Shown here: one piece after another, positions 8,260 to 43,900 of the stretch | Layout: every line of letters begins with the position of its first letter | Position numbering within the stretch: the first letter of the stretch is position 1 | DNA from: Nemertoderma westbladi | Taxonomy: Eukaryota; Animalia; Xenacoelomorpha | Direction of reading: 5' to 3' | Assembly (NCBI GenBank): GCA_032718475.1 | Contig: JAUCBJ010007860.1 | Location: 70,901-134,900 of the forward strand | Length of the DNA stretch: 64,000 bases | Translations under genes and position numbers: made by a program | Notes under the pieces: model-generated | Databases searched by the model: none | The model's input: the letters and a program-made list of their open reading frames with translations, nothing else | What the model was told of the DNA's origin: nothing

Positions 8260-8906
8260 AACTAAAACTACTACTACCACTACTAGGTCGAGCGAACTCG
8301 GACTGTGGAAATGAGTTCCATGGCTGTCGTAACTTAGTTTCTGTCAAATCCAGCAGTATCCCTTTCAAGTTGGTCTCTATGTATGTCATAGCCGGTGGTT
8401 CACGGGAACGCCTACTTGTGCTGGCGGCCAGAAAAGTAGATCAGGTATGACTTCGTCTGAATGAATAATAGTCTGCGTTGACGTAAAGTAGTTGATTCGG
8501 GTGATATTGAACCATAAAGCTCGGGGTTTCTCTTGTTTTGTCTCCGGATAATGTTTAGTGCTGCCTTTAGTACTCTTGTGTAGCGGAGTACAAACAGCTA
8601 GAATTGAGAAGAAATCTGTTTCACCCTCTGGGAGTACCTGAGCCTCTGTGTCAAAATATAACAATCCAATACCAGCGACAATTACTTCTGGTATTCCATA
8701 AGCTCTTAGGATTTCCAGTATTTTACCTCTACGGATGGAGTCAAAGGCTTTCTTGAAGTCGCAAGAAGATCAGAACTGCAGGAAGGTTTTTGACTTAATA
8801 TATTCAACCAGCCTCCGTAGCGCTAGTATCTGAGCTATTATTGATCTATTTGGTTGAAATCTATTTTGGCTTTTAAGCAAGAGTTTCTCTATTTGAGGTC
8901 GAATTC
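8260..8906 (-). mobile_element. Old RTE-like LINE, RT/3' fragment with (TAG)n-like tail; continues at 20305-20370 and 25095-26030
   Basis: Minus strand reads RIRPQIEKLL..QILALRRLVE..DFKKAFDSIRRGK across the LTR insertion; tactac tail at ~8265-8285. Confidence 0.75.
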
Positions 8907-9447
8907 TGTGACCGTAGCCCAGCCATCCCGGCCATAAGAACCATTATATGGGTAGGGGCTTCAATTTCCAATATTCCCTCATCTCTCTTTCCCCATTTAA
9001 CTACCCACAATACCAATAGTTCTACCATTTCGGCCGCTTCACATATTACAGCATTGCCACCGGCCCTTACAGTAGGTGTAGCGTAGCCATGGTATTACTG
9101 TGTCATGATTGGGTGCTATTTATAGGTGTATATCATACCGCGCTCTGTGAGTGGCTGTTGTCTCCCATTCGCTAACGGTTCTACCGCCAAAACCTATAAG
9201 GCAGGGCGTTTCTCAACCTCTGCATTATTCCTTCTGCAGTGTACCTGACAGCGTGCCATTGCTTCTACCGGAGTTTCTGCCTTTTCAGACATTCAACATC
9301 AGTCACTCACAGACCGGCCCATAAAACTCACTTATGCATAACAACATCATTCTAAGATCTATTCAACTTTATTATCATGGGTTCGGGAAGGGCGGGAGCT
9401 ATGCGTTATTAGCGGCTCACAGGTTCATCAGCCAGCAGTGGGGAATA
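8907..9447 (+). repeat. 5' LTR of element 1 (TGTGACC...GGGGAATA)
   Basis: About 3 differences from 19764-20304 seen by eye. Confidence 0.95.
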
Positions 9448-9761
9448 AAAGTAGAAGCATTGTCCGGATAGGGCTGCTAAAAACTGCTTCTTCAACATCT
9501 CTAGGCACCCAGCTAGGTAAAAGTAAAAGGAGCAATCAACGACAGAACTATAAGTGCGTACCGGTCCGGTCACCGGTACTTACGGTAAAAAAAACGTTGT
9601 CGTTGTAGTAGGGTAGGCCTACAAACTGTTGCCTAGCCCTACGGCAGTACGCGGTCAGCAATTACAACAGCTTACAGCCAGCATGCCGGTCACCGGTGCG
9701 GTACCCTGCCCAACGCCTCCGCGCTAAGTACCTACGCTAGCTACGCTGTCCCGCAGCGATA

Positions 9762-12700
9762 ATGAGTACCGGTATCCCAGGAGAAACCCGGCGGGGCACA
9801 GCCAGTACGGTAGGCCCCGAACATTCATCCCACTTAGACGGGACTCCAACCGGCTCAGCAGACAGCCAGTTCGAGGGATGGTCAGACTCATCCCACGCGG
9901 ATCAACCCGGCTCCCAGGGGGCCATTGGAGGAGACCCGCAACCCGAGGTATGTTCTGACTCGGCGGTTTTACCGGAGTCAGTCAATGTACCTGATACCAA
10001 CCAAACATCCACGGTTCCAGGGCGCGTCGGTTCAGCGGTGAACTCGCGCACTGGACCGGTACTGCCAACTACAACAGGGCAACACCCAGTTCGGCCGAGG
10101 ACACCGAGCCCTGATGGGGGGAGCCCGCAGCATTCCGATTCAGACGACAGACGTGCTCCTGCGGGTGCCACCGCGGGGGCAGCGACGGTCGAGGACGCGG
10201 TCGTTCGATTGCAGCCGCGGGGAGCACGGAGCGATACACGAACTGGATCACCCGTTAAACCCGCCCGCGCCCGACGCCTAACGCGATCTACTATCGAGAA
10301 GGGGACCCTTCCTTCTAGGGATACAGGTGAGGTCGAGAAACTGGCGCAGAAATACAGACGCGCTAGGGACCGTATGGAGGATGGGGTCAAGACGGGTACG
10401 TTAAACTTCAACATTGACGAGGCCGTCGAGCAGGTAAACTTGTACATAGAGCACCTCAATAAATATCAGCAGGAGGTGGCAAGTGACCAAATAACGGACC
10501 ATATAACCAACTTTCTTACTGTACTGTATATTACGCATAAACTGGTAGGTATATACAGGGTTGGTAAGGTTGTAGTAGGTGAAGCCGCGACAGCTGTCGC
10601 CAAAAATTGGGATAGTGTACCACTGGGGGGAGAGATGAGGGAGGCGGAAGCAGAGCTCCTACCCAGTGATTCAGTTTCCCAGGTTGAGTCCAATCGGGGG
10701 ACTTTTATTTCGAGCCAAGTTCGCTCAAACTACATGTCGGTAGCTTCATCTAGGGGGGTAAGGGAGGAAGAACTACATGCCCAGTTCCTTATAGAACAAC
10801 GGGAACTGGAGGGTGAACTCCTAGAACAGGAGTTAGAGAAGGCTAGAAGGGTTAGGGCCCACAGGTTAGCGAAAAATAGGAAACAACAATTAGAGGCCCG
10901 ACAGCAAAAACGGTTAGTTAGTCTACGAGCAGCCTCTGAGAATGGTAGTTCAGTGTCCCGCCCTACCCAGGTTAGTCAAAGTGTCTCAGTGCCGTGCGGT
11001 CTGGCGCAGGTTGCCACAGCCCGCAAGCAAACAAATAATCGGGTTGAATTAAATAAACCCATAGAATTTAATAATTTAAATCTATTAAATAAACAAACCC
11101 AACTGGTTGACATAGACCAGACAGCAGGCCGTCGGCCGACATACCTTGTACAGCAGCAAGCCGTTCAGACATCGGCCAGGTTACCCGCAACACAGGGGTT
11201 AGTACAGGGAGTCTCTGAAGGAGACAGTATAAGGCTGATGAGCCGAGATACTGATAATTGTATTAATTTAAATGGAAATTTAAATAACAATTTAACACCA
11301 AATATTGATTTATTGCAATATAATGCAAATTCTAATAAAAACGCAAATATAATTGCACCAATAATAATACAAAGTAATGTGGAGGCACCAGTCCTGTCTA
11401 ATAACATAGACAGTGACTCACACCAACCCACACATAACACAGACGACATTGCAGTGCCGCCAAGCGGCAGTAGGTTGTACTGTGGTAATCAAATCGCTTC
11501 ACGCGAAGAGTCGGATCGGGAGGAGCGATTGCGAGACTCGGGAGATCGCACGTCGGTTCGAGTCAGTAGCAAAGTGGAGGAAGTCTACTACGAAGGATGT
11601 CCGGGGGCAAGAACTGGCCAACTTACGCAATCTGGCGAGTCTGAGCGGGCGACGAGGGCTCAGGAGGATCGATCTTCGGATGAACTCGTCGATCCGTTAT
11701 GTAGGCTAGGCCAGCCAGCTACTGTAGGCTATCAGTCAGTAGACCAGCAAGAACAAGCTACAGTAGTGCCGGACATAGATAAACAAACAACCCTAAACCC
11801 CAATGCGAGTGATTATAGACCGCCGAGAGTTCCAGAAGGGGGTCGACTTAATTTATCGGACGTTCGACATGCAGACTCCACTGCGAATGTACCGGTACCG
11901 CGAGTACCCCTATGGAGGCCTAGGGATGATAATGTGTATTACAATAGTAATATAAGAGAATATTTACCAGTAACAGCAAGCCCTTCATACAACCCAACTT
12001 CATCAGGGACATACACCCAAAGGGGGTCTAATGAAACTATTCATAGCCCCGTAGGTCTACATTATGATACTTTACCTAGGCTATCTTACCCCAGTAGGGA
12101 AACTGATAAACCTGCATATAATAATGTTGGGGGGGGGGGGGGGTAAGGACATGGCAAGGGGCCCAGGGGGCCTAGGAATGTATAGACCAAATATTGGTGA
12201 AGGGTCTTCCCATAGGGATGGTGTCACATCAGGACCTGCCAGTGGCTCTATTGGACAGACTACTTCACCACCAACAATACCAGAACATGTCAGCAGCACA
12301 GACCCTACAGGGGGAATGAGTGCAGTGGTGGATGCACTCAGGGTGCGTTTAGAATTGCCTCCCATCAAACCCTTTACATTTGATGGGACAAAGCCTGAAG
12401 AGTATGTACAATTCAGGAGCATGTTCAACGAGGAAGTCATGTCTAGGGGTCTAACTACAACTCGATGTCTAACTCATCTTCAGTCCTATGTAGAGGGAGA
12501 AGCTAGCGACATTGTTAGGCCATTTCTGGGCATGGAAGGAGGCTTCGCAGAGGCGTGGGCAGCCCTAGATAGTGAATATGGGCATCCTGCACGTATTATT
12601 CGAAACACCATACGTACCTTAACTGCAAATACATCCTTGCAAAAGCCTAAAGAATTAAAGGCCTTTGCTGCAAAGGTCAAAAAGGCTCTTATTGTGCTGC

Positions 12701-15700
12701 GCACATTGGGGCGACCAGCCGAGCTTAGCTCCACATCCAATATGACATCCATAGTGGAAACCTTACCAGTATGGATGCGCAGCCTATGGCGCAAGAAGGC
12801 ATATGTCCTACGCGAGGAAAAGGACAGGGAACCAGATTTTGCAGACCTGTCCACCTTCCTTACCTTCCAGGCAGAGATTATGATAGACCCCATATATGGG
12901 GAAGATAACTTCAACATTCCTAAAACTGGAGGAAAATCTAAAGAACTTCCCGCAACCACAAATAGAGACAAAATGAATAGCCCTGCTTATCCGCTGCCAC
13001 GCAAAAATGCCACAGGTGTTTTTCATCTGGCAGAAAATGAAAGGTCCAGTAGGGATCCCGTGTCAAGATCGAAGTCACCCTCGGTGCCAGCAAAAAGGCA
13101 CCAACCACCAGTGGCACCTCCGGAGGGCACTTCTCGAAATTCGACATATAAACAATCGGAGCGGTTTACTCCATTTACACCTTACTGGGACATAGGAACC
13201 TTAGGTTACAGCGACGAGGTGGACTGCCAGATCCATTTCAGAAACAAAGGTCACCCTACTAGAACTTGCAGGGTGTGGCAAGCACAAAGCCAACAGGACA
13301 AGTGGAATTACCACAAGCATCATGGTACATGCAAGCATTGTGTGACCACAGGCCACTTTTCAACGAACTGTCCCTATGCGCCTGCAAAGTCTGGGAAATC
13401 TGCTGAATCCGGGGCTACAGGCGTGATAAACACTTTATCTCTCCAGGATCGATATTATGGAGAGACAACGTATCTTAAGATACTTCCTGTTAGAGTGACA
13501 GGATCGAGGAAACGGTCACTGACAACCCTAGCACTAGTCGATAACAGTGCTGGAATCGACATCCAAGGTGAAGTCGTTCGGAAACAGTTGCATATTGCAA
13601 CACAGCCAGAGACCATGCATATAAGCACTATTGCATTAAAGAACCAGGAGATAAACATGCCGGTTGGGGAATGTACAGTTAGTTCTATTATGCCAGGGCC
13701 TGAGTTCTCAATTAAGTGCCCAGCAGTACGTGTGATAGACGAGGTAAACGTTCCCGCCGAAAGAGCAACAACGGAGGAGATAGCCCAGTACTCATACCTG
13801 GACGGCATCGACTTCTCTCTTCCGCCATTGGATCTTCCATATGTCACCATGGCGCTGGGGATGTGCTGTCTCCCGGTACATGCAGAGCTGGAGATAGTTC
13901 AGGGTCCGGGTAGAAATCAGCCCCAGGCTGTACGAACACCCCTGGGTTGGGTATTACTTGGCAAGGTGGCTAAGGTACCGTCTATATCAAACCCGACACG
14001 GGCTGTTACTGCTAACCACATCATTAAATCAGTAAAACCGGGCCCAGCTAGACCAATCACATCCCATGAACTCACTTATACCCCAACTGACACAGCTGGG
14101 ATCTCAAGTGGCACTACGGTGGCACAAGACCTAGCAACCCTCTTCAACCTGGATAGCGAAGGGTTGTATGAACCGACGCTTGGCCAATCCCAGGAGGACG
14201 TTAGAGCAACCAAGGCACTAACAAATTCAACCATCTTTCGAGATGGCCACTACACAGCAAGAATGCTGTGGAAAGACCCGAATGGGCAGTTACCTAACAA
14301 TGAATCCATGGCAGTAGAGCGCCTACGCAAATTCAAGGTAACGCTCAACCGAGATGAGCGAAAGAAACAGTTTGTTCATCGAACCATTCAGAAGTATCTA
14401 GATCGAGGGTGGGCAGTCCAGCTAGCGAACCAGGAACCCAATACCACTCGAACCTATTACTTACCCCTTCATGTCGCCGTAGATGTGAAGAAGAACAATA
14501 AACTCCGGTTGGTTAACGACGCTGCAGCCAAATACCATGGGAAGTCGCTGAACGACTATCTCCATGAGGGGCCCAACATTTATAATACAGGAGCAGATGT
14601 GCTCATGAGGTTCAGAGAGGGAACCAAGGCCTTCACATGCGATGTGGAGGCCATGTTCCACCAAGTTCGGGTCTATCAGGAGGACAGCGATAGCCTCCGA
14701 TTCCTCTGGCACGACAGCGATAACCCGAACGAGGTGCCAAAGAAATTCAAGATGTTGGTCCACATCTTTGGCGCCAAGTGTTCGCCGTTCATCGCCACCG
14801 ATAAACTACGGCAAACCACCTTTGACAAGAATGTTCTCATCGAATTCTCACAAGAGGTAATCCGCATGATTAGGGAGAACTTCTATGTAGACGATGGTCT
14901 GCAATCAGCCAACTCGACTGAACAAATCCTCAGCCTAGCGAAGGAAGCGGTAGAGATTCTACGGCGGGGAGGATTCTGGCTGAGGCAGTTCAAGTCGAAT
15001 TGTCACGAATTTGACGCCGAGATGGCCCCAGAGGATAAATCCACAGGCCTTCTCAAACAAAGTGAGAACATGGCTCCTATAAGCCTACAACCTCTAGCGG
15101 AGGGTAGGAGCCAGCCAGACGCAGCCTCAGGGGAAGTCAACCGGATATTGACCGAGGCTTCGGCAGAGCCTGAGGCCAGAGTGCTTGGGATTTCATGGGA
15201 TAGGATCAACGATAATCTCGTGTATATCTTCAACGAGACAGCTATGACAAAGCATACATTACGGAATTACCTATCATACATCGCGAGGATGTATGACCCC
15301 ATAGGGTTAGCATCACCTAACCTGGTGGTGGGAAGGCATATCCTTCGCGAAGCATATCTGGGGAAGTTCAGATGGGATGAGGAACTCCCAGAACAGCTCA
15401 AAATCAAGTGGATAGCTTGGCTCGAAGTTCTCAAGGACACTAGAAGGATAAGTATACCGCGACCGTACTTCTCGGATGGGAATATGTCCGAAGTGGTCCT
15501 GCATGCCTTCTCAGACGCATCGACTAAGGGATATGGGGCCGTGATATACGTGGTTCAAGGAGGAGAGAACAACCTGCAACCACGTCTGATCTTCAGTAAG
15601 GCCAGAACTGCTCCACTAAAACTAGTGACAATCCCGCGATTAGAGCTGATGGCTGCACTTCTGGCCACACGCGCAGCTCAACAAGTACGAAAAGCTCTTA

Positions 15701-17538
15701 AGAATGAGCGAGAAGTAGAGTATTGGACGGATTCCACTGTTGTGCTTCGCTACATTCAAAATGAATCACGAAGATTCAAAGTTTTCGTTGCTCATAGAGT
15801 GGACGAGATACGTGCCACGACCAACCTTAATAAGTGGCACTTCTGCCCGACAGACCAGAACCCAGCCGACCTAGTGTCCCGGGGAACCCTCAAAGTCCCA
15901 TCTAAGGAGTTGGAGACGCTCTGGCAGCATGGACCCTCTTTTCTCCGTGATGAGGGGAAGTGGCCAGAATTCCCGGACAAAGGTCAATCTCCCAAGTTAG
16001 ACCCAGAAGATCCAGAGGTCAAGATGGAGACCGTGTGCTTCGCTACTACTAGTACACTGATGACACCAACAGATAAACTCTTGAGTCATAGCTCTTCATG
16101 GTATAAGACTGTGAAGCTGGCAGCCTACTTCAGGGCCTGGTTCGTCTATATCAGACAAGGGCGTACTGGAGACAAGCCCATTATAGACTGGAAGGGAGCC
16201 AAGGTGGCTGTCATTAAGTATGTCCAGCGACTGGCATACACACAGGAGATAGGACGGTTAGCATCTGGGAAACCCATTCCGATGGATAGCCTAATCAAAT
16301 CGTTGTCACCAACACTAAACCAGGAAGGAGTCCTGGTCATGGACTCACGAGTACGACGGGCAGGATGTCAGATAATTCCAAGCAAGCCCGTAATACTACC
16401 GCGGCAGAGCCCAGTGACGCAGCAGATCATCAACGATAGTCACCAGCGGGTGATGCATGGGGGTACGGACGCAACTCTCGCTTACGTGAGACGCACGTAC
16501 TGGATTCCAGCGGTGCGCCGATCAATCAAACAGACTATAAACTCTTGTTCTACCTGCCGTTTAGTGCGGAAAGAACGAGTAACCCAAGTGATGGCGCCGC
16601 TTCCACCCGAACGAACAATAGAGTATGAACCACCAGTTGCCTATACAGGAACTGATATGTTCGGGCCGATAGTGGTAAAGGTTTATCGACAGCAGCGGAA
16701 ATCGTACGGCATCATTTTCGTTTGCTACAAAACCCGAGCCATCGCCTTGGAACTTGCAGTCGACGCCTTGGCCAGCGCTTTCATCAACGCCCTTCGACGC
16801 TTCATCAATCGATGTGGAAAGATCAAGCGCATGGCTTCCGATAATGGGGGAAATTTCATTGGTGCAGAGGCGGAGCTCAAAGAAGCCAGGTGTACCTTCA
16901 ATGCCAAGGAAGTGGCTCTCGCAATGCGCCGCGAAGGTGTGGACTGGGTACACACTACGCCCTATGCACCACACACCGCCGGAGTTTGGGAACGTCTCAT
17001 TGGAAGTTTCAAACGCCTGATGCTGGCACTACTCAGAGGGCACATCGTCACGGAGGACGTGCTCCGCACTGTCTTTGCAGAGGGCGAACAAATTATGAAC
17101 AGTAGACCACTCTGCGCGCTCAATGACGATCCAATGTCACTCGAGGTTCTCACTCCCAACCATCTACTGTTGCGACGACCAGCTCAGATGATGCGACGGG
17201 GGGAGTGGGACCCTAATGAACTCTATTCACGCAAGTCCTGGCGGGTGGTACAAGCGCTCGCGGACGAGTATCAACGTCGGTGGGTACAAGAATACATACC
17301 CACTCTCCACAAGCGACGAAAGTGGAGGACGGAGCAGAGGGACCTCAAACCGGGCGACCTCATACTGGTTACCGATGATACCCTACTCAAGAAAGACTGG
17401 TGCATGGCCAGGATCGTGCGCTGCTACCCAGGCGCAGACGGCTGAGTGCGTTCCGTCGAGGTCAGCCTAGGCAGCGGAGCTAAGCGCACCTACAAGCGAC
17501 CAATAGGCAACTGCTGCCTATTGGAATGCGCGCCCTAA
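9762..17538 (+). pseudogene. BEL/Pao gag-PR-RT-RNaseH-IN polyprotein, disrupted by a +1 shift in a G15 run (12129-12143) and an in-frame TGA at 17443
   Basis: Knuckle CKHCVTTGHFSTNC, protease LVDNSA, RT FYVDD, RNase H HAFSDAS/TIPRLEL/NPADLVSRG, integrase HHCC and SDNGGNF; frame continues past the TGA as VRSVEV..KRPIGNCCLLE. Confidence 0.92.
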
Positions 17539-17642
17539 TTAAAGACGGGGCAAGCCGTCTGGGGGGAGGATGGGTGGCAAAAACCAAAATCCTCTCAACT
17601 TCGCATCGACAGCAGATATCGACAACTGGTGCGAAGGATGAT

Positions 17643-18066
17643 ATCCACCAGTGGATTATCATAAACTCAATGTCTACTCCGTAGACTTTAACAAACTCTC
17701 CTTTATGTCTATTCAATAGACTTAATAAACTCAACTTTATGTCCTCTCTATGGACAGCTTAATGTGCCTATTTAAAGGACAACATAGGTCTACTCCGTAG
17801 ATTGTGTACTTAGGTCCACTCCATGGACAGCTTTAGCTTTAGATCTATTCCATAGATCGCTTACTTACATCCACTCCGTGGATAGCTTTAGGTCTATTCT
17901 GTAGACCACTTACTTATGTCCACTTAATGGACAACCTTATGTCTACTCCGTAGACGATGTAGCTAGGTCTGCTTTATAGGCTGCTAGTACTATAATGTCC
18001 ACTCCGGGACAGCTCAACTATGTCTATTCCATAGACAGCTAATGTTACTAGGATTACTCCGTAGTC
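17643..18066 (+). repeat. Array of ~15 short stem-loops (consensus GTCTAC-TCC-GTAGAC) in the 3' region of element 1
   Basis: Repeated 15-17 nt hairpins with compensatory changes and variable linkers. Confidence 0.85.
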
Positions 18067-19763
18067 TTCAGTAACTAAAAACTGACTGGGTCTCTAGGAC
18101 GCGTGGTAAACCCTGTAAAGGGCAAACCCACCACTGGAGGCACGGCTGTCAGTGTGCACTTGAATATTCCACCGCAGGGATATGCCTATCCGATTGTGCC
18201 GCAATCGGTGAGCGAGGCTACCCCTAAAAGCTATGTTTGTAGAGGGCTCCGCGCTCTACGGCATAGCGCCACCCTAATTAACAATGTCAGTTGTTAATTA
18301 GCCCTAACTCTTCTATTTCTAATTAATTATGTACCTAGCACTATGTATAATTATAGCAAACTACTATAGTGTAATATAGGTCTGTGCCTCTTACTTATAG
18401 GCACATTACGCGCAACGTATGTAGGCTATTACTAGGATAGCATTCTTCTTAGGCTAAGTGAAACCTATATTAGCACCACCAACCACCATTATTATTCATT
18501 GTGACAAGGAATTGGATTAATATTGCGCCACGCTATTTAGCATCTGAGTCTCATCAAGACACTGCCTTGTCACATACAAACCATAGCTAGCACAATCTGA
18601 GTTATCGCGAGTTAAGCCTTGTTGGCTTAGATTATAGCTATGGTTCCCAATGCCAATCAACTAAAGGATATGACACGCGGGTTCTACTTTCTACGCGTAT
18701 CTGGTTGAAGATTATCCCACCGCAATGTCCAAAATGTATGTTATAAAGTGTGAAACCGTGTTTACGTGACAACTTATGTAATTACCGTTCTAGAACGTGA
18801 AGGGTCGGCTATCAGTGTTATATAGCTTAGAGCGCTCGACCTAAAGAGAAAGATATGCCCTATTAAATTCAAAATTGGTGCATAGTTAAATTTAGTCATA
18901 CCATCCACCAATAGTTTATTGTAAATTAATAAAGTGCTCCATGTTCTTAAAATTTTCTTACTTTATTAAACCTAATACGGTAGGGGCGAATTTGATGGAC
19001 ATGAGACCACTGACAACCCATTTTAACAACGGGATCATTCTAAGGCGGCAAACCACCATGTTGGCTCCGTCAACATGGGTCATAGTTAGCGACTTAGCAG
19101 TTCCGCTGCTTGGCGCTAATACTGGGGATGTACATACAGTGAAGTATGTACATTTCTCTGTGTGGGCTAAAAAGCGCATTTAGTTCTCACAGGCAGTCTG
19201 GGGTACATGAATTCACGCCTGTTCATGTACCAAGGAGCGACGATCCGTCGTTTAGCTCTCAGACACGCTAGTGCTTGCCAAAGAGCGGTAAGTTGCTTGA
19301 TGTGTCTCCTCTGGCGAAGATCAAGAGACACTGACTCAGCAAGGTAAGGTCATAGGTATCGGCTCCGTCGTAGTACCTGTTCTTGCCTGCTCCACAGCTG
19401 GCAAAAATGGTTAGTGTAACCTAGGGTGTACTGCTCCGCAGTTACACCCGCGCGCCCAGCTGCAGTTTCGTTACCTGGCAATCGAGGTAAAGTTAGCGCC
19501 TCTAGCACCACAGGTAAGGAAACAAGAATGTAATCGCCTAGTCCCCGACGAAGCGAGAACATGTACCCATCTGCCCCTTGGGACTACAGTAGGGATTCTC
19601 CCAAAGTCTAGTCAGTGTTAACCAAGGGTAAGTACTATCAGCAGTATGTCCAAGGGAGGGAATAGTCCATTCAACTGCAAATGTCAACCAGCAGGCTAAG
19701 TCTTTTGGGTATAAGGAAATTTGCGAGGTTGTTCCGCAACCTCTCAAATTCCTTAGGGGGGAG

Positions 19764-20304
19764 TGTGACCGTAGCCCAGCCATCCCGGCCATAAGAACCA
19801 TTATATGGGTAGGGGCTTCAATTTCCAATATTCCCTCATCTCTCTTTCCCCATTTAACTACCCACAATACCAATAGTTCTACCATTTCGGCCGCTTCACC
19901 TATTACAGCATTGCCACCGGCCCTTACAGTAGGTGTAGCGTAGCCATGGTATTACTGTGTCATGATTGGGTGCTATTTATAGGTGTATATCATACCGCGC
20001 TCTGTGAGTGGCTGTTGTCTCCCATTCGCTAACGGTTCTACCGCCAAAACCTATAAGGCAGGGCGTTTCTCAACCTCTGCATTATTCCTTCTGCAGTGTA
20101 CCTGACAGCGTGCCATTGCTTCTACCGGAGTTTCTGCCTTTTCAGACATTCAACATCAGTCATTCACAGACCGGCCCATAAAACTCACTTATGCATAACA
20201 ACATCATTCTAAGATCTATTCAACTTTATTATCATGGGTTCGGGAAGGGCGGGAGCTACGCGTTATTAGCGGCTCACAGGTTCATCAGCCAGCAGTGGGG
20301 AATA
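19764..20304 (+). repeat. 3' LTR of element 1
   Basis: Direct repeat of 8907-9447, preceded by the PPT. Confidence 0.95.
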
Positions 20305-22856
20305 AATTCTATATAGAATCATTTTGTTGCATTTTATTGCAGCTACCACAAGCAGACTGATCCCCACGCTAGTTTGTTGGTTCAACGAGGTCTCTCTTCT
20401 TGTGGAGAGGTTTTAGTTAACTATAACTTTTCCCTTTCTGCAAAAAAGCACTCCCAACCCCCACTATGGATTACAATTGTAATGCGGAGGTCCGGCCACT
20501 ACAGGCCAGTGGAATTACTGGACACAAATCGGCCTCACAGGCGTCAGTTATTTCCTGACCGTCTCACCCCCGGCTGGTGGAGAGGGATTCTGGAGTTGGA
20601 GGCTACTCTCATGTTCCACCCCGACCAACCAAACCTTTATTGAAACTGTGGCAAGTTACTAGAATAGCCACAGTTAATACTCTAACACTCGGGTCCCTAA
20701 TGCGACAAGGCGAGCTGACTGCCCTGGCAGATAAGGTGTCCCTTAGCGCAGTGTGTATTCAATAGCACCGAAAACGGTCTGGACCGACTGATTAGATTCT
20801 GATTAAGGACATGAGGGGCGGTTGGCGACTCGCCCTCGCATCAGAAGATGAAAGTGAAAATGGTGGAATTGGTCTATTGATGAATCCAACTGCACATGCA
20901 GCATTGGACAAAGTAGACAAAATTTCCAACCGCACCATCCGCCGCCATTTCTTATGTTCTGGAAAACTTGTTAAGAAGTTTCCTAAGGTGGTTCTGATCG
21001 TGTGCTACTCTGCAACTAGTGTTGCCCCTGTAGAGGAGGTGGAAAATTTCTACCAGAATCTACAAGCAGCTACTGATGGAATGGATCAGCATTCATTCTT
21101 AACTTTCCTGGGCGACTTTAATGCAAGTCTACATCAATCATCCACATCGCCCTGGGTCTATACCGATAGTGAAAACCGAAATTCCGTCCATAGTCAGGAT
21201 TTCATCTCTGGAAATGGACTGCTTTCTGCTGGAACTCAGTTCAAGAAGCCTACTGGAAAGCTTTGGACTCACACTGGACCCAGTGTCCACAAGTCCCAGA
21301 TAGACCACATTCTGTTTCGTAGGAAATACAGGAGCTCTGTACAAGACTGTAGTGCATTTACACTTCGACCCTACTCCAGTGATCACCGCCTTATTGTGAT
21401 CAAGGAAAGATGTGGTCTCCGCGCTAGCATAATTACGAAATCTGACATCCCACGGCATGACTGGTCCTCTCTGTTCCAACAGCCCAGAATGAGATCCAGC
21501 TTCACACTAACGCTGAGCAACAGCTACGAGGTTCTCACCTCTGAGGCAACAGATCACTGCGAGTGCTATACTGCCTTCACAGAAGCAGTTAAGTTAGCAG
21601 TTGCAGAAACAGTTTCTGTATACCCTCGAAACAGGAAAAAAGGCCTCCTGGACTGACCACAGAATTCGAAAGTGCCGAAATGACCTCTCTAAGGCGCAGA
21701 ATGTCTCCCGCTAGCTCCGGCACACGAGGACAGACAAGGATGCAGTTAAGATTGCATGTAGGACCCTTAATAGACACAGACAGTACTCTGATAATCTGAA
21801 AGAGCTTATTACAAAGTAGGTTGATGCCATTAACAATACTCATAATAACAGGCAATCAGCCCAGGCATGGCAATCAATAAACCTGCTCACTGGGAGGAAA
21901 ATTCAACCAACCACCAAGGTTAACTGCTGAATCTCCAGCTGAAAGCCTCAAACAACCTAACAACTCATGGATTTTTTCCTGGAATCTCGTTAATCTCGAT
22001 TGCTGCAACGCTATACAACATAATTCTATAATCATATTCCATAATTATTCATTAATTCCATAATTAAATCGCATCAGGGATCCTGTTGAGAGACTGCTAC
22101 GTGGAAATCAGAATGGGTTCCGATAAGGTCGTGGGACCATGGAGCCCATTTTGGCACTTAGAATGATAATTGAAGAGTTATCAATAAAGAAGGACAGACA
22201 ACGGGCTATTATCTTTGTTGACTTCTTTAAAGCCTTCGACTCTGTCTCCTGACCACGGATGTTGAGCATACTGGCAGCATATGGGTTCCTGAGGAAATTA
22301 TTGTAGCTATCCGATCACTGTATGATGGATCCACCACGTTTGTATCTACTCCTGATGGTGATACAGATCCATTCTAATGGGGAGTCCTTCAGAGTGACAC
22401 ACTTGCATCATTCTCATTCGTAATTGTGGTTGATTATGTTAGTACGCATGTCCTTAGACCATGTTAATAATGATGGGGTGATTGTAACATCCCCTACTGG
22501 TACAAAAAGTAGAGGAAATCCAGCAAAGTACCTTACTGATCTAGACTTTGCTGATGACTTAGGGGTACAGTCAGAATCACTAGCGGGAGCCCAAAGGCTT
22601 ATCTGCTCATTGGAGCAGGATGCTTCTAGTGTTGCTCTTTTTGTAAACTCCAAGAAGACCAAACTCATGACAGTGAACATAGACAGCCCTCAAGAAATGT
22701 CTTCACCTTGCTTGAGCACGTGGACAACTACTGCTACTTGGGATCATGGATCCGAATGTCAGGTGAAGACCTTCGGATAAGCAAGGGGAAGGCATGGGCA
22801 GGGTTAAATAATCTGTCCAGGATTTGGAAGTCCAATCGAATAATACGGAACCTTAA

Positions 22857-33188: not shown

Positions 33189-33737
33189 TATTAAAAATTT
33201 TAATTATTGTATTCTTCCTGATTCAACAACTTTCTCGATATTGGTTCAGTTTGGCCGTAATCACAGGAAATACAAACCAACTGAACCATACATGTACGTT
33301 TCCGGACCGTATGAAAACAGAATAAATCTGAACTTTCTGAACAATTAAGGAAAAAAGAAATTAAATTCCCCTCCCTCGGAAGAAATTTCATATAAACTAT
33401 TAAATGTCAAAATTTCAAATCTGAAAACCGCTTAGAGAGATCTCTTTTAGTTCTCTAGTTATCGTGGAATATGTCTGTCAAAATGTAAGACAGACAAACA
33501 ACCGACCGACGTAGGCCTACAGACTAGATTCCACTAAATGTTAAAACTGACATCGGAAAAGAAATCAGCGACCCCGAAAACCCATTAAATATAATTTTAG
33601 CTCGGTGGTGTGCTTTCTTCCTGTCAGACAAATTAACCAACCAGACCCCATGCGTTAGTTTTGACTTTGAGCGAGCAGGATTGAACATTTAAGGCAATTA
33701 TCTCTGTATGACATTCTTTCAATCGAAAAATACTACT

Positions 33738-34995
33738 TGTTCGCGCTTTTGAAGACCTTTAGCAGTTTAACCTGCCAAAATTTATATGTCTTTTAGTTAA
33801 TTAAAACCACTTTAGCATATGACAATATTTTATGCTAATACGCAAAACATTAGCCGAAGGCAGCCCATGCGCGATCATTCACCCGATGGATCTACACCCG
33901 GGAGGCTGAATTCGGATGCTTAAATTGTATTATTGCAGTGTAAGGTTGCAGTGTATACCTACTGTATTATTCGATAGATCGTTAATAATTAATCTCTGAC
34001 ATATATTATTGGCTTTCGGGAAATATTAACAGTTCCTTTAGGACGTGGCGCTTTATCTATTTAAACAGAACTAAGACTTATACTAAAACGCAACGATACT
34101 GCTTATGATTAAAGTATAAAGCGTATTCTTTAGGAAATACTTTGTTACCAATCACAATCATACACACTATTCTGCCGACCGTCAGTATATTTGATCATAC
34201 ATAAAGAGAGCAGCAATTGACTCACGTAGGGTCTGCTAAATAACATTGGATTCAATACACACCACATTAATATAAATCGCAATTGTTATGTATAGCCGGT
34301 CTCTCTAACCTGTAGTGTTATCAAGAAAATTGGGAATTTGGGTGATTTATCCGTATTATCCAAAGAGCAATATTTCCATCAACAAATAGGTACAATTAAT
34401 AACTGACAGTAAATAACAGTACAAACAATATGATTAATGCAGTTAAATTAAGTAAGTATGTTAAGATGCGTTAAAATTCGATTGATTAATTAGATTCGAT
34501 TCGGTAACAGTTTATACTTTCGATAATTTAAGCAGTTTTACTAGAGTTCTTCCCAAAAGGCCGGTGTTTCTGGCTTAGACAGCAATAACAACAAAGTATC
34601 AAGTAAAAACAGTAAGACTGAACACTCTCCTTATGATCGGCTGAAAAGCTACACGTCGACAGGAAAAATCGCTCTGATTGGCTCAAGCCAAACAAAGAAC
34701 CATGCGTCCAATGGCTGTTTCCATGTCAGCAACCAGCTGTTAGATGTCGTAATATGAATCATCACGGCTAAGCTGTGAAAGGTAGTTGGTGCATTACAGG
34801 TTTTTTGCCTTACCATGTCCGCCAAAACACGTATATAGCAGAATGATTTTTATGTCCGTTAAAACACCTGTAAAGGTACCTTGCGGGCGAGGGGAATATA
34901 TATACAGTTAGAGAACCCTTTTAGAGTATTCCAGCGCCTGGGGGGAACTGGCCAGCAAAGGCAAACGTATCAGTTATCCCACAAAAGCTTTTACA
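33738..34995 (-). repeat. 3' LTR of element 2
   Basis: About 2 differences from 51301-52558 seen by eye. Confidence 0.96.
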
Positions 34996-35073
34996 CCGCT
35001 CCCAGAAAATGGGATTTAAGTCTATAAAATATACAAAATCACAGTTTCTAAAATATAAAAATACTCTAAACAG

Positions 35074-38000
35074 TTAGTCTTTCTTGCGCGGACGGCGTTT
35101 ACGCAGTTTTTTAAAGCTAGCAAGAGTCCTTTTCTCTTTGGGGCGAGCCACTTTACGAGGAGGGCTATAACTCCTGGGTGAAGGGTGCAATATGATTGCA
35201 TCAGAAGGTATGGGATTGCGATCGGTATATCCGCCGGTCGAAGTACCGGGTTGATTGACCTCAACGTCCGGGGAGAGGGGTCTAACGGCTTTGAGAGCTC
35301 GTTTCAAGACAGCCGCTCTTACGGGTCCTGTACGAGTGGTCTGCACGAGGGCCGTGGGTGGACCATAGGTAGTTAGAAACTTCCTTGGTTTAATGGTTCT
35401 TTCCAACTCGCGTTCGCGGGCTCGGTACTCGTAAGGCCGTCGATATACTTCTTGTAACTCAGGGTGTGAGTTGACGAATAAGTCTCCATAGGCAGGGTCT
35501 TGACGGATAAAGTTTATTAAGTTGTAAGAATGGATGTCACTCGGATTAATGCTCCTGAGGAATTTGCGTACATATTTGGTTGAAATACATTCTCCAACGC
35601 GCTTCAATAGTTCATAACTTGATAGGCGCGATTTTTGCTCGACGGAGGCAAACAAATATGGATGGAACGCATAAACTCCTTCGTAGGCGCGTCCAGGATA
35701 ATAGCGATGGCGTGAATCACAATGTAAATCAGCGTTCGCTTCCCAAGCTCTGATATAACGTAGTACAATCATCTCATCTACGCTCTCTAAATCATGGTTG
35801 AAGGGACAATCAAAGCTGGCGTGTCCTTTTAATTGACAATGATGGCATTGAGTCATAAATTTGGGGCAGACCCCAAAAATGTGCAAATTATTAAGCCGAC
35901 AATATGCACAATAGATTTCCATCGACGGTTGCTTGTGGAAATAGGAACAAAGATCGTTGGTGTCCATAGACGTAATATGGTCTCTCGATGCGCACAGCCG
36001 ACAACGTTGTCTAGAAACATAATTGGCATGGCGATAATCATACGCAGTAAGACACTGGGGACCTTGATACCATTCCAATATGTAGTCGCTATCGCTACTC
36101 CGAGACGTGGGGGGTTGAATCTCTTCAGATTCTAAACATATGGGTTCGTCTTCCCCTTGTATAGTTGAGGTAGGCATGGCCGTCTCCTCAAGTGGACCTA
36201 CCGTCTGAATTTCCACGACAGAATAACCGGTGGGGATCCGAGGTCTTTGAATAACCGAGGAGTGCAGGTTTATTATACAAATGTCTCTGAAAATAGCGAA
36301 TCCAGCGCTATCTAACTTCTCCGCAGCCGAGTCTCTTAAGCTGAGCTTGGTCAAAGCGCGGTCTTTGAATTGGCTATCCACGTTGCGAAACGGGGTTAAA
36401 AACCGTCGGAAACATTCAAAGCGGATGAATTTATTATGTTCATCTAGCTTAGCGAGTTTGGTCCCAAGGATTAATGGATGGGCGCGTATAGTACGACTGC
36501 ACACATCGGCTAGCCAACCGGAAAGTGCGGTGTTTTCGAAGATCGTGTAGATAGCTAAGGAGGGACGGAGTGGAACACTCATGAAGCTATACACGGCGCC
36601 AGGTGCGGTCAACGGTCCGTCAAAGTATAATCGAGAATAATGGTCTCCATATACTTGTTGATAATTGATGGGATTTCCGACCTTGAAATTCCACCCGTAT
36701 TCCTGAAAGGCGAGATGTCCGATGGAAGTTCGTTGCACCTTTGTAATGTTGCTAGACACATTAGCATACATGGTGCGAAAGACCTCGGCCTTCGGCCCAA
36801 GGAGCTATCAGCTGAGTATCCACGAAAGGATAGGGGATATTCTCCATATTCCGAAAGTCGTTTTGGAGATCTCCGTAAACAGCTGAGCCGATTTTAACGA
36901 TTCTTTCGTTGAATAACATCTCGAGAACGGGCTGGGGTAACATCGATCCATCGATACCCATGGCCGGTTTGCGTTCGGTGTCAATGACGTAACGCTGCGC
37001 GAGTTCGAATTGTCTATGTCGGAGATTCTTTTGCGTTTCGGTGAGAGTTTCGAAGGAATAATCGATCACGTCGGAACACGCTCGCGTAAACACGTGAGTG
37101 GAGCCAGCTAATCCGCGTATGTGTATCATGCGCGTAGTTCCTAATTCTCCGATTGGAACGCTACCTTCGTTATCATAAGTAACAACGCCATACATCTCAA
37201 TGATATTAAGAGTTTCATTCCACTCTTTGGTGGCGTTCTCGAGGGTCATCCCTACTGGATGCCACAAGGTGGCGCATTGATTAGCGTCAGGGAGATCACT
37301 ATACTTCATATATCGAGTGGTATACGTCTCCACATTTCCATATCTTTGGATTTTCTCCTCCTCGAATAATACGTCTAGATTTCAATGGACTAATCGAGTT
37401 TTAATAAATCCATCGAGGTTATAAGGAGGTTCTGTATCCTTCTCTATTCGAGAAACGTTGTATGGTTTTCGAAATGAGTTTGCCTTTACTAATTGATCCA
37501 GATGTTTTTGCAATTGTTCGAGTTCGACAATGTCTAGAGGATTTATTAGTGGTAGAAACTTTAAATCATGCGTCGGATCTTCTGGTTTTACCATATAATA
37601 TTGAGTCAGATTAACGTAATAAGGGTGATCTTTAATTCCATAAAAAGAGTTCTGTAAAGGTCTAGCGCGTATGTTGACATCGTGTACCATACGACGGACA
37701 AGATCCGCTCGATTGTCCGGAGGTTCAACGAGTATACCGTCAACTCGAGCGGCCTCGATTGGCGGACGCTGTAACATAGGAGCGTCAGCGATAAGATTTT
37801 GCGATCTTATGCTGATATCAACCGGTTGGGGTTGTATCTTTGCGAAAAGTTTGTCTCCGAAATGCGGAACCATCGAGGGATGACGGACGGTTTTAGAGTA
37901 GAGATCGGTTATGAGTATCTGAGTTTCGGGTTGGGCTAAAGCGGCTTCTTCTCTCTCATCCATTTCCGTATGTCTCTCCTCCATTTGATTCTCCTCCGCC

Positions 38001-39325
38001 TGTTTCTGTAAGCGTTCTTCCAGAAACTCCTGTAGAGAATACGTACGTCCAAGCTCGATGTCCTCTTCGAGGTTTTGGATTTCTCTATCAAACTGCGGCA
38101 AGGCTAGCTCTTTCACCGATTGGACCTGCTGCTGTAATTTACGTTTCTCTAGAAAATCCTGGGTTCCCTTTCCGATTTTCTGTCGGATGGCGTCAAGAGC
38201 GTTTCTGATGACACTCTCCTCGACTTCCGTGGCAGGTTGTATCGGAGTTAATCCTGGCCGGTTGTAAGGATTAAATGGCGATGTTAGATGTCCGCGTCCC
38301 AATCCGGTCAAATAGGATGGTCGAATATCCAACGAACCTACCTCAGGAACACCACCGATTAACTGCTCGGGCAACACCAAATCCTTGAACAGTGAGTATA
38401 ACTCGGGAGGATCAGTGAGACTGTTAGGATCAAGAGTTTGAGGTCTCACGGGGAAATGGGGAGGTCTGACCGAGTATTCCGGAACTCTGATCATGGGTTT
38501 ATTTAGCGATCGTTTTAGACGGGCGATCGTAGGTGATACATCGAACAGGTTTCGCTCGAAACTCCCGTAAGTATAACGCGTGAAACTGTGTTTAGCACAA
38601 CGTCTCCGCGGATGTTTATGTCTTTCCGTTTGCTGGTTAGGTCTAGGACATGAGTCACAATAATACCAAAGACGTACGTCCTGCAGAGGAAACGCGGGTG
38701 ATCGTTCACCAGTTTTGCAATACTCTTCCATTTGTTCAAAACTGTCCGGGACAACAGGCAGTGGACGATCTGCGGTAAGATACATCATGGTGAAATAGAG
38801 TCGTTTGAGTTCTACCATGGGATCGTGATGTATACCTTGAGGATATCGAGTCTCTAGGTTCTGTTGACTGGCAATATTGAGATAGGTTTCCCGCAAAAAT
38901 TCCACGTAGTCGTTGAAGTTGATACGCTTATCGGGTTCTTCAACGTTTTCTCTGTCGAGTAGGTGGCGAATAGAGTTCTCGTGTTCTATTCTCGGTTTAT
39001 CATTACGATTCCGCTGAGAATGATATTTAAATAAAACCATTTCCCTTTCAGTGTCTACATCATCGGTATCATGTAAATCGGTGGGATGGCCGGTAGTTAA
39101 GAAGTCCATATACGTACCATTGCGATTCGTATAGCGAGCGGTGAATTTTCTATAGTCCGCTTCACGCGTAAGTTGTTCCTGGGACATCGGCGGTTTGATG
39201 TAACGACCGTCGTCCTCCGTAATAGTCGGATCGGCTTCACCGCGTATCAAGCTATCCACAAACGCTTGTAAAGGTAGAGTATATCGCTCTCTAATACCAA
39301 GGTCATCTTCTATCAATTCCGTCAT
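35074..39325 (-). pseudogene. Accessory ORF of element 2 (~1414 aa reconstructed): unknown N-terminus, DEDDy-like 3'-5' exonuclease, three Cys/His knuckles, basic tail
   Basis: Track ORFs 37382-39325 and 36761-37333 are in frame across a single TGA; a 7-bp duplication at 36784-36797 explains the shift to 35074-36771; motifs VVTYDNEG, LPQPVLEMLFNERIVKIGSAVYGDL, FVDTQ, CHHCQLKGHASFDC. Confidence 0.75.
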
Positions 39326-40944
39326 ATCTGCTATCTGAGTTTGTTAATATCAATATAAATTAGTATTTTAGGCAAGCGGGCGTCGCTGCCTATTAGGCTT
39401 TTTGCCCCCGGACAGTGGGTTTCTCAGCGCCGATGTACCGTTGTCGCAGTGTTTACGCCAACATGTAGCAACAGCACGACAACGATAACCGGCACAAGTC
39501 CCACCACTGTCCGTCCCAAAGGCTTGAATCCACTTGAGGTTATCTCGGTAGAGTTAGGGCTATTTTACAATTGCGATTAGCTACTGTAAACACACTTTAG
39601 TAGTAACATTCACCTATAAACGCACAAGTTCCATACAATCATTACTTACTGCACACATGCATGCCATTTGTCCGTTAGTCAGTGTCTTCCAGAATGTCAC
39701 GTTATTACTATGTATCCTTGGATACTAATAGTGCGCTATGTATACTCTTATGCTACGCAATGGGACAAGCTTTTATTGTTCCTTTAACTTGCTTCTAATT
39801 CTAGCGTGGGTGTTGCCATGGTGACATTATGGAAAACTAGCGGTAGAATTAGGGCAATTCTCATGTATACAGATCTGGGATGTTATTTAATAGTAATTCT
39901 TTAATTGTCAATATCCTCTTTATGCATGATTTTATAAATTTTATCGGCTATTGACTATATGTTGGAGATTCTCGCACTCTAATACACTCAATTTGAATCT
40001 CCGCTCCCATGATCTATTAATTACTGGAATTTTGGGAATGTTATAAATTGTACAAAATGACAATTTATGAAATTCATTTGAATATGAATTTAAATTTATT
40101 CCCGTGAATTTTATTATTTGATATTAAATTGACATAAATTTTATTCCAGAGCATATCTGGGGACTCAGGATCCTTAATTCTGTAAAATAGTCCTTCTAAG
40201 AATATCGGTAAATACTGCGATATCTTAATTGACTAGAAATTTTAAAGGATCGGGATTTTACAGATTTTAACAAATATTAAATTAATATTTAGGATGGGCA
40301 CCAATTTATTCCAGAACTTGTCTGGGGACGTTAACCACTGATTCTAGAATTTGTCTTTCAAGTATATCGGTGGGTGCCACGATATCTTAATCGACTAGAA
40401 TTACAGATGGTCAAAAGTTTAACAGATTTATTTGCGATTGACGCTACTGTTAGAGGGACATCACGCTACTATATGTATTATTTGTTATAAGGTAGAAGAG
40501 CAATATCGCACGAAGCAATGTCAGTGTGAAGAGGCAAGTCGTTTCCAAGGTCTACCCAGAGCCTGGTTTAGCCGAGACACGAGGATCTGAACTTTGCATT
40601 CCTAATACTCTGCCTACCAATAATACTTAAATATAGTAGTGGCTTTATTGTACTTTAAGAAGTACGGACATGTCATCTTACTATAGTCTCGTATTTATAA
40701 TATAATACGGACAGTAAGGAAAGAGAAAATAATTACTTCTTGCCGTCGCACTAAATATATATTATAAGTAATTATGTACGTAATAAACACTAATATATTG
40801 CACTAATCTACTAAACATTCTAAAATAACATTTTACTAAATAAAATCAAATAAAAACGATTATAATAAAGTACATAATAGAGTTCGCATATAAAATGTAA
40901 TAAAATCGATAAATTAATATAGTCATACACCCACTCCAGACGTA

Positions 40945-43900
40945 TCACGTTTGGGAGTCCCTAGATGTTTGAGGTATTAGGGAGGTGGTCGTGGGAAGAG
41001 TGTCTTGTCTTCCATAGTTTCCGGAGAGTTCTCTGTCTCTTTCCAGCAAACATAAACGACCAACTGGGCGATTGAGTTGTTGCGTCTCAAAGATTATTCC
41101 GGGTTTCTTGAAGTTACGCCTCATTACGACGAGTTCTACTGAGCGCACTAGACCATCCTCCGAGATGTGCGTCTCGATGATACGACCGATCTGCCACCGT
41201 CTACGTGGGAGGTCCGGATCTACAATAAGGACCATGTCTCCGGCGCTGACATTTTCCTGCTGCGCAAACCACTTAGTTCGAAGTTGTAGCGTGGGCAGAT
41301 AATGTTTCTCAAAATGGTCAGCGAAACGACGGGATAGCAACTGCATAAGCTGCCAAGTTCGACGACAGTATTCATCTCCATCGGCAATCTCGGATTGTGG
41401 GAGCATGGCTACAGGTTTCTTAAGTAGGAAATGCGCGGGTGTTAGCGCTTCCAGGGAGTCGACACTCGATGAGACTGGCATAAGCGGTCTCTCGTTAAGA
41501 TAGGCAGCGATTTCTTCCATTAACGTCCGTAGAAGTTCGTCGGTGAGATATGCGCGGCACGGCACTATAAAGTGAAATGCGGTCTTGACACTTCGAATTA
41601 ATCTCTCCCAACTTCCTCCCCACCAAGGGGCGTCGGCGGCGTTAAAGGTCCAGCTAGACGCCGTTATCCGTAGCTGGTCATCCACCTGTCTTTGATTCCA
41701 GTCCTTTACGTAAGCCTGGATTTCGTTGTTGGCACCAATGAAGTTCGTTCCCTTGTCGGATCTCATCGTATTGCTAGTGCCGAAACGAGCGATCTGTCGT
41801 CGTAGACATAAGACGAAGCTGTTAGTAGATAGATCGTTCACCATATCGAGATGGATAGCTCTACAAGTCATGCAGACAAAGATTACACACCATCTCTTGA
41901 TTATAGTTCTAGCACGATATACTTCAATAGGGCCAAATAAATCCACACCAGTATTAGTAAAGGGTGGTTCATAAAAGCTTACTCGTTCCCTAGGTAATTC
42001 TGCCTCTCGCTGTGTTAAAGGCCTACTGAATACTTTCCTACAAGGTATGCAGTTCCTAAGAACTTGATTCAGAGCTCTACGTGGTTTATGAAAATAATAG
42101 CGGGTTCGAATCTCGCTAAGAACTCGTTCTCTACCAGCATGATACAGTTTACTGTGAACATCTACAATCATCTTGATTTGTACTTCAAGATTACTAATGA
42201 GTATAGGGAATTTAGTATCAAAAGATAATGGAGCGTTGGTAAGTCTTCCTCCAACGCGTATTAACCCATCTATCATTGTGCTAGAGAAGCGATCCCTTAA
42301 GCGCATCTGCGGATTTCTTAATAGCAGAAAATACCTATCGGAATCTTCATAGCATTGCAATAGTCTCAGTAGCTGCTTATTAGTTTCTTCATGCTCCTGG
42401 TAGCTGATCTTCTCCTTTAGAAACCGGTCTGATATCTTGTACTTAGGTAGATCTTTAATAACATGAACTTGCGCAGATGTTACCGGAGCAGGATCACTAG
42501 TGGTCTTCTTCCTGGAGTAATGATGGTGAAAACATCTCTTTAAGTATGTGACAGCTTTACAGAGACGATTCCAGGAACTGTAATGATGCAGTGCTCTCTG
42601 CAGCAGGGGTGAGATTCCTTGCGAGACGTCTGGTATCTCAGATTTCCAATTTCTATCTCTAATTTCCACAACAGATTTGTTTGTGGCGAGGGATTGTGGA
42701 TCCGAAGTATCGTTCTTGGCAGTATGTAATACAGATAGATCGATTGTCGGTTTAAATAACTTCGATTTACTTGTCCGAATTTTGGGTTTGACTTTCTCCG
42801 CTCCCTTGGCTTGTCTAATCTCAGCCGTAGTAAGGTGAGGAGGCCATTCATCCTCTTCCTTGCTTAAGAAGTCGGGTCCACCCAACCAGTCAGGGGTATC
42901 TATCAGTTCCTGTGGAGTTGCTCCTCTGGAGGCGATGTCAGCTGGGTTAATCGTACCAGGGCAATGTCTCCATTGATCTATCGTTGTGCGACTAAGAATA
43001 ATGGCCACTCTGTTAGTAACAAAGACGCTGAACTGACAGACTTCATTCGTTATATATTCCAATACAAGTAAAGCGTCGGTCCAATAAACGGTTTTCTCCA
43101 GTGGATAATCGATCTGTTCTGTTACATTCCGTCCGATAGCGGTAGCGTATAATGCTGCCTTTAACTCCGCTCGAGGAACCTTAAGCTTGTTGTTAATCAA
43201 TGCCTTAGAGGTAACCAAGGTAACTTTGATTCCATCCGGAGTTTCGACTCGCAGATATGCTATGATACCGATCCCCATATCGCTGGCATCTCCAAATACA
43301 TGGAGTTGATAGGAATACGTAGGGAGAACATGACCAAAATATGAACGGGAAATTATAAAGTTCTCGATGGCAGGTAGCGAATCCTCCCATTTCATCCATT
43401 TCTTTAATAGTTCTCCCTTGAGTGGATCGTCCCACGAGTGGTTTTCTAGCCACATTTGTTGTACTAAACTCCGAGCAATCAATATAACTGGGCTAATAAA
43501 TCCCAAGGGATCGAAATAAGTGCTCAGAATACTTAAACAAATCCGTTTGGTCCGAACTGGATTATCTCGCTGTTTTAACTGAAAAAACAGGATGTCCCGT
43601 TCTGTGTCCCATTTCAAGCCAAGCGTCTTGGTTTCCGGAAGATCATCATGTATTAAGTCGAGATCTTTTGATCCCCGGTCTTCTACAGATATTGCTTCCA
43701 GAAACTCACGGGAGTTGCTGGTGAACTTCGTCAACCGAAATCCACCTCTTTTCAAACACTCAACCGTTCCTTTCGCGACATCAATGGCTTCCTTTACTGA
43801 TGGAAGGGACTTTAAATTGTCGTCCATGTATATGTCTCGTTTGATGTTATCTATCACCTCTTTGGAGAAGGCATCCCGGTTGTCATCCGCAGTGGTACGG

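Follow-up and report, generated by a model that had tools for sequence, protein, structure and literature searches.

The window analysed here, i.e. the whole stretch of 64,000 nucleotides (nt) from Nemertoderma westbladi (contig JAUCBJ010007860.1, positions 70,901 to 134,900), contains a BEL/Pao long terminal repeat (LTR) retrotransposon at positions 8907-20304 of the forward strand (+). Behind its pol gene lies a tandem array of small hairpins, and the loop of these hairpins recurs, on stems of unrelated sequence, in the remainder of the 3' untranslated region (UTR) and in the leader. Judged by structure prediction, these hairpins are very likely an RNA structure under selection.

The element is flanked by a 5-bp target-site duplication (AATTC, 8902-8906 and 20305-20309). 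Its 5' LTR (8907-9447, +; 541 bp) starts with TGT and ends with ATA rather than the usual CA, and its 3' LTR (19764-20304, +; 541 bp) mismatches the 5' LTR at 3 of 541 bases. As the LTRs differ at only three places and the target duplication is present, the sequence indicates a recent insertion. The first open frame (9741-12146, +; 801 amino acids from stop to stop) has no Pfam match and, by its position, would encode the N-terminal part of Gag. Near 12,100 it is overlapped in a different phase by the Gag-Pol frame (12055-17539, +), which in this copy is interrupted by an in-frame stop (17443-17445). The domain order according to Pfam, i.e. Gag (DUF1759), protease, reverse transcriptase, RNase H (Peptidase_A17), integrase including its zinc domain, and DUF5641, is that of BEL/Pao. 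The second frame also contains the motifs YVDD (at 944), DAS (at 1154) and SDNG (at 1595) as well as two Cys-His boxes, located by pattern at residues 391 and 426.

Domain set and order, YVDD, DAS, the 5-bp target duplication and the TGT start of the LTR agree with the features given for the BEL/Pao element Sinbad (PMC554778). BEL/Pao Gag has a triple Cys-His box, of which the pattern search recovered two boxes here; the element Tas lacks the triple box (PMC554778). Unlike typical BEL/Pao elements, this one has LTR ends of the type TG...TA instead of TG...CA, no TGG-type primer site and a long structured 3' UTR. The odd LTR ends and the missing primer site are an oddity of the family, and the superfamily placement stands, as it rests on the proteins. 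The nearest proteins are at most 40% identical, their named sources being coral, echinoderms, amphioxus, bivalves, barnacle, fish and sponge, which by themselves would point to a marine animal as the probable host.

The 2.2 kb that separate the pol stop (17,539) from the polypurine tract adjoining the 3' LTR (19753-19763, +) contain no long frame, and no sense-strand open reading frame of more than 103 amino acids overlaps this 3' UTR. A purine tract directly behind the pol stop (17560-17570, +), at a place where seven of 24 distant BEL/Pao loci have theirs, resembles a second polypurine tract and may have served as such; the 2.2-kb UTR may have been gained between this old tract and the new one. 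In LTR elements the stretch between the two LTRs belongs to the RNA that was reverse-transcribed, and array and UTR are part of this RNA since they are located there.

The tandem hairpin array

The array (17666-18076, +) comprises 15 hairpin units with stems of 5-7 bp, whose loop centres lie between 17678 and 18058 at a spacing of 22-35 nt; the unit at 18003 misses one base of its 3' arm. An odd first hairpin with a 5-bp stem and a 4-nt CCAG loop precedes it (17643-17656, +). Some 15 stem-loops directly downstream of pol, spaced by 22-35 nt, had been recognised in an earlier sequence-only reading of the window, and our count and spacing agree with it, all eight hairpins quoted there being found at their positions. 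The cap Y-UYH-R is present in all 15 units, i.e. both the first U of the loop and the Y...R flanks are constant, and nine units have YUCCR. As to the loop triplets, UCC occurs nine times, UCU and UUA twice each, and UCA and UUU once each. The 3-nt pyrimidine-rich loop that had been regarded as kept thus holds for its first U, but UCC is restricted to nine units and, as the closing position is C.A in four of 14 units, the loop may comprise five nucleotides rather than three.

When the units are aligned, 89.4% of 104 cells pair, and changes on both sides are seen in 17 cells and in five of the seven pairs. None of 500 shuffles reaches this paired share, and slid registers yield 21-48%. Conservation, expressed as majority share, is 0.84 in the core stems, 0.71 in the loops and 0.56-0.62 in the flanks. 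We simulated neutral evolution by independent substitution along the tree relating the 14 units without gaps, with the amount of change set to that observed and 4,000 runs per setting. No more than 0.4% of the runs (P <=0.004) attained the observed pairing of 67 out of 70 cells, and 0.9-3.9% yielded three compensatory types, in line with the earlier statement that the array is unlike a neutral minisatellite. Of the traits of a neutral tandem minisatellite, i.e. independent substitution, unlinked arms and a motif confined to the array, none was found. The paired stem changes emphasised in the sequence-only reading are present, but the five core base pairs show only three distinct types of compensatory double change. 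The array has higher-order periods of 49 and 55 nt, and the change from TA to CA may be one event that was spread by higher-order duplication of ~50 nt.

The stretch is contained in three of six listed sequencing runs, in each case as DNA contigs, and in three of four DNA runs from two studies the whole UTR is intact in one contig with ~99.5% identity. Five differences between contigs fall into the array, namely one in a linker, one at a loop centre (U/C), two of G.U versus G-C and one of C.A versus C-G at the closing position. They break no core pair and, with contigs this similar, are too few for a covariation test.

Paired arms may also arise in DNA. The array could be a functionless palindromic minisatellite, the arms of which are matched by hairpin-templated DNA repair or by template switching during reverse transcription. 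The excess of double changes over independent substitution is what one-step palindrome correction would also give, and the array folds about equally on both strands (z -4.98 for the sense and -4.22 for the other strand; -124.1 versus -121.4 kcal/mol). Moreover, ordinary tandem repeats follow pol in several distant BEL/Pao loci, and in plant elements tandem repeats between pol and the 3' LTR are common, their function being given as unknown (PMC11963269, PMC3305785). Since double changes are few, both strands fold alike and the strand test is weak (see below), the array alone is compatible with one-step correction of palindromes in DNA. Comparison with neutral and repair models, which the sequence-only reading had proposed as a check, therefore disfavours neutral substitution but leaves palindrome repair as a fit to the array by itself.

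The plant Retand/Ogre arrays resemble the present one in their position right behind pol and in their family-specific units, and both their origin and their function are called unknown (PMC11963269, PMC3305785). They belong, however, to another superfamily and kingdom, and the main texts of these two papers use neither the word hairpin nor the term secondary structure. The units described here, in contrast, co-vary as hairpins, and their loop recurs outside the array. Such arrays behind pol of LTR elements are still listed as being of unknown function (PMC11963269).

The same loop on unrelated stems

The motif YUCCR was fixed from the array and applied to positions 18,081-19,749. Six of its nine sites cap predicted hairpins, i.e. 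all six YUCCG sites (P 0.94-1.0) and none of the three YUCCA sites. Whereas six capped YUCCG are observed, 300 dinucleotide shuffles give a mean of 0.017 and a maximum of one, and a comparison with 11 other capped pentamers among ~1,650 UTR positions, which are not fully independent, results in a Fisher p of 3.5e-11. As controls, YUCCG caps a hairpin at 0 of 10 sites in the reading frames, 0 of 26 in a second BEL element of the window and 1 of 16 in other DNA. If the motif is widened to YNCCG, a step taken after the data had been seen, 8 of 11 sites are caps in the rest of the UTR (18081-19749) and 1 of 6 in the leader. By contrast, no site is capped in the LTR (of 5), in the reading frames (of 46), on the opposite strand of the element (of 69) or in the second BEL element (of 112), and two sets of other DNA have 1 of 62 and 0 of 20 sites capped. 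YNCCA is never a cap (0/19).

The eight dispersed hairpins of the UTR are all predicted on the + strand. They are found at 18190-18208 (UGCCG cap), 18239-18259 (CUCCG), 19056-19078 (CUCCG, 9-bp stem), 19096-19110 (UUCCG) and 19355-19377 (CUCCG), the latter two each sitting on a longer helix, and at 19424-19449 (CUCCG), 19535-19557 (CCCCG, the weakest of the set) and 19725-19743 (UUCCG, directly before the polypurine tract). The hairpin predicted in the leader (9744-9758, +) has a UCCCG cap, a 5-bp stem and a closing probability of 1.0, and lies only a few bases upstream of the first AUG (9762). The 5' arms of the six scattered YUCCG hairpins match the array arm at only 1-3 of six letters, and thus, on sequence comparison, these hairpins do not come from duplication of the array; by eye, their stems are also unlike each other. 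This recurrence, up to 1.7 kb further on, had escaped the sequence-only reading; with it the observation, at first limited to 0.4 kb, covers the entire 3' UTR as well as the leader. As duplication or DNA repair would hardly yield one loop on unrelated stems, the recurrence points to selection on an RNA structure that presents the loop.

The last 865 nt of the UTR have a folding z of -8.44 in the sense versus -5.05 in the antisense direction (20 shuffles each); in the middle part of the UTR z is -3.58, the sense strand having no energy advantage. For six of the eight scattered UTR hairpins the sense RNA is the more stable form, one is a tie and one shows the opposite. It is hence probably the loop that is kept, on the sense-strand RNA. 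The palindromic minisatellite introduced above is quite improbable in the light of these hairpins: it leaves the same loop on six to eight unrelated stems unexplained and predicts drift of the loop, not of the stem. Furthermore, U.G closings at four of nine scattered sites together with the sense bias of the distal UTR indicate that one strand matters.

The same strand data bear on a possible action of the hairpins in single-stranded minus-strand DNA during reverse transcription. There they would read as C-GGA-G caps, a very stable type of DNA mini-hairpin; the 3' UTR is copied early and lies between the two purine tracts, and folding of the other strand predicts caps at 5 of 12 CGGAR sites. 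The DNA energies, however, do not favour the minus strand (means of -3.4 versus -3.5 in the array and -6.2 versus -7.0 outside), and U.G closings turn into C.A mismatches, so that we regard this as the least probable of the explanations considered.

Known RNA families and distant relatives were searched for similar structures. Rfam gave a single match for positions 17400-20400 (24.4 bits versus a threshold of 41, E 0.66) and none above threshold. The loop does not agree with the motifs of Smaug, Roquin, the iron-responsive element, the histone stem-loop, the UNCG tetraloop and nucleolin. A covariance model of the 15 units detected nothing beyond the array at E <0.06 in the window and 29 loci, missing the scattered hairpins as expected for unrelated stems. 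For comparison with other BEL/Pao elements, 28 distant loci (28-40% identity) were drawn from prokaryote assemblies, presumably representing host DNA, and the 24 having enough DNA behind pol were scanned (L011, L019, L022 and L029 were too short). An array in other BEL/Pao families, for which the sequence-only reading had suggested to search, was found in none of the 24, just as the covariance model revealed no second array. In seven of the 24 a purine tract lies within 260 nt of the match, so that much of the scanned DNA may be LTR or flank. Within this small sample of distant loci, the motif does not appear to be general to BEL/Pao. Two of the loci have ordinary tandem repeats downstream of pol, with units of 65 nt (L027:7314-11600) and 52 nt (L024:7308-7731), showing no visible paired changes.

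Viral contigs gave no match to a two-unit DNA pattern. The two matches to a looser pattern, one full unit each, are unrelated, and so is the only match in metagenome contigs, three near-identical 18-nt repeats behind a bacterial-looking gene. A protein scan of the viral contigs gave 23 candidates, none of which was confirmed.

A putative dock for a protein

From this one sequence, selection on the predicted structure is well supported, and the multivalent RNA element proposed from the array holds in that a selected multivalent structure is supported, more strongly so by the loop on unrelated stems outside the array than by the array itself. We think it likely that the hairpins constitute a multi-site dock, i.e. 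that the 15 tandem and eight scattered hairpins act on the full-length element RNA as platform for one protein. The sense RNA would be the form that matters, with stems that serve only to display the loop. The array would have arisen by tandem duplication of one such hairpin and may represent a dense cluster of weaker sites alongside stronger single sites.

Packaging-signal-mediated assembly is marked by a shared loop motif that is presented on varying stems in many dispersed copies (PMC6281560), as in the MS2 TR-like stem-loops and the RGAG loops of hepatitis B virus. The element is predicted to have just this pattern. Viral packaging signals are found for the most part within coding regions of small RNA genomes, and experimental tests of capsid binding define them, whereas the sites of the element are confined to non-coding parts, 15 of them in tandem, and are known here by prediction. 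The UTR would work like a dispersed loop-motif signal that belongs to none of the RNA families tested.

Among the partners considered for this dock, the most probable is the element's own Gag, which we propose tentatively. Gag is favoured because the pattern matches dispersed viral packaging signals and because the second element in the same host lacks the motif. Many Gag molecules would bind the sites jointly, allowing the element to pick its own RNA and particle assembly to start. The leader hairpin before the first AUG could couple binding of Gag to translation shutdown; in MS2 the strongest packaging site is also a translational repressor site. If Gag does bind, dispersed loop-motif packaging signals would extend to retrotransposons and would be readable from single sequences. 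We know of no description of how BEL/Pao elements recognise their own RNA. The titles and abstracts searched, which excluded subscription journals and Repbase, report no such element in BEL/Pao or other LTR elements. The BEL/Pao survey (PMC3118150) and the Sinbad paper (PMC554778) contain, in their available parts, nothing on such hairpins, and the word retrotransposon is absent from the accessible text of PMC13455556.

Several observations weigh against such a dock, or against Gag as its partner. Retroviral zinc knuckles mostly grip an unpaired G; here the loops are pyrimidine-rich and the G is predicted to be paired. Retroviral packaging signals are usually located at the 5' end, and here 23 of the 24 sites (15 tandem, eight scattered and one leader hairpin) are at the 3' end. 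UCC is lost in six of the 15 array units, and the widening to YNCCG was post hoc. The sense-strand G:U-compatible changes noted from the sequence are present, with six G.U versus two A.C over all array helices, but the strand argument is weak, as this difference is not significant (p 0.14). The 24 distant loci lack an array, have YNCCG capped at 3 of 151 sites and present no triplet more than three times, and the second BEL element of the window has neither an array nor loop enrichment.

Alternatively, the hairpins may be bound by a host RNA-binding protein, other than glycyl-tRNA synthetase (GARS), that acts in export, germline localisation, stability or translation of the unspliced RNA. All structural evidence fits such a protein equally well, the 3' UTR is the usual place for signals of this kind, and proteins of the KH or RRM type are better suited to pyrimidine-rich loops than zinc knuckles are. 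Nevertheless, one might expect further elements in this host to make use of a host partner, and the second BEL element has none of its 112 YNCCG sites as cap. The titles and abstracts searched revealed no protein of this specificity, nor did Rfam yield a family above threshold. We consider a host protein of this type rather unlikely.

The triplet in the loop suggests GARS as a further partner. In this case the hairpins would mimic the anticodon arm of tRNA-Gly and recruit the enzyme, boosting translation or bridging the 5' and 3' ends. [quoted passage not shown] NCC in a hairpin loop on a free stem is predicted at the nine scattered sites and in nine of the 15 array units. The triplet sits mid-loop like an anticodon, the stem sequence is free as in known GARS elements, and sites at both RNA ends parallel Mengovirus (PMC12781879). 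The capped triplets outside the array are six UCC, one GCC and one CCC in the rest of the UTR plus a second CCC in the leader, ACC being capped at none of three UTR sites, and eukaryotes have GCC, CCC and UCC as their three glycine anticodons (PMC6720975). However, the absence of ACC is not predicted by this mechanism, as the triplet may begin with any letter and is ACC in poliovirus (PMC3384309), and only three sites bear a letter other than U. The published element requires CCA in a loop of 6-7 nt on a 5-bp stem with -10 kcal/mol or less (PMC12781879), which none of three pattern matches in the UTR passes. The picornavirus elements occur in one or two copies, whereas here more than 20 copies present YNCCG in a predicted loop of three or five nucleotides, and the letter after CC is G at all nine scattered sites, in accordance with the lack of YNCCA caps. 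Finally, by-eye comparison with tRNA ends taken from PMC13524379 shows neither a tRNA-Gly primer site nor a CCA complement behind the 5' LTR. More than 20 tRNA-glycine anticodon mimics, in an array and as single copies at both ends, that recruit the host synthetase are therefore improbable. If GARS did bind, anticodon mimicry, so far shown for picornaviruses, would extend to transposons. Whatever the partner, the YNCCG cap, which may sit on any stem, is a precise motif open to testing, and this one element supplies the controls along with it.

The 5' end of the element and its neighbourhood

The stretch directly behind the 5' LTR (9448-9480) has no TGG-type primer site and folds into a predicted hairpin with a GGAUA loop (9466-9470, P 0.92). 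Self-priming or an element-encoded primer was considered, but the best complements to this stretch are 9 nt long (at 9260 and 18682), which is not above chance. The GGAUA loop, in an element that lacks a standard tRNA primer site there, raises the possibility that the UCC(G) loops kiss GGA-bearing loops of the same RNA, thereby joining its ends or dimerising it. Yet of the loops predicted, only 2 of the 31 at the 5' end and 1 of the 79 within the UTR contain CGG or GGA, the pairing would comprise just 3-4 bp, with mismatches for the GCC and CCC variants, and more than 20 donors per acceptor would be odd. Kissing is thus very improbable.

Leader and Gag start (9560-9773) contain four ACCGG(T/C) motifs. 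Two pairs of these are predicted to fold into hairpins that carry the self-complementary CCGG and are possible dimerisation sites. The element sits within a high-copy repeat (flanks 8800-8906 and 20305-20400), and contigs of the sequencing runs join the flanks without the element.

The second BEL/Pao element of the window (33734-52559, -) is 18.8 kb long, with LTRs of ~1,263 bp that are 99.8% identical and one frame of 2,496 amino acids. Behind its pol, three extra frames on the same strand (39343-35074) encode 653, 206 and 576 amino acids; they have no Pfam match except for a weak zinc knuckle in the last one (E 0.07), and are possibly extra or envelope-like genes. Two diverged copies of a predicted long hairpin (40400-40323 and 40238-40161, -) are located in a non-coding stretch behind pol of this element. 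A portion of a third element (58091-64000, +) shows ~80% identity with the second, and positions 2-2309 are taken up by a satellite in which a 31-bp unit is repeated 74 times with 91% matching.
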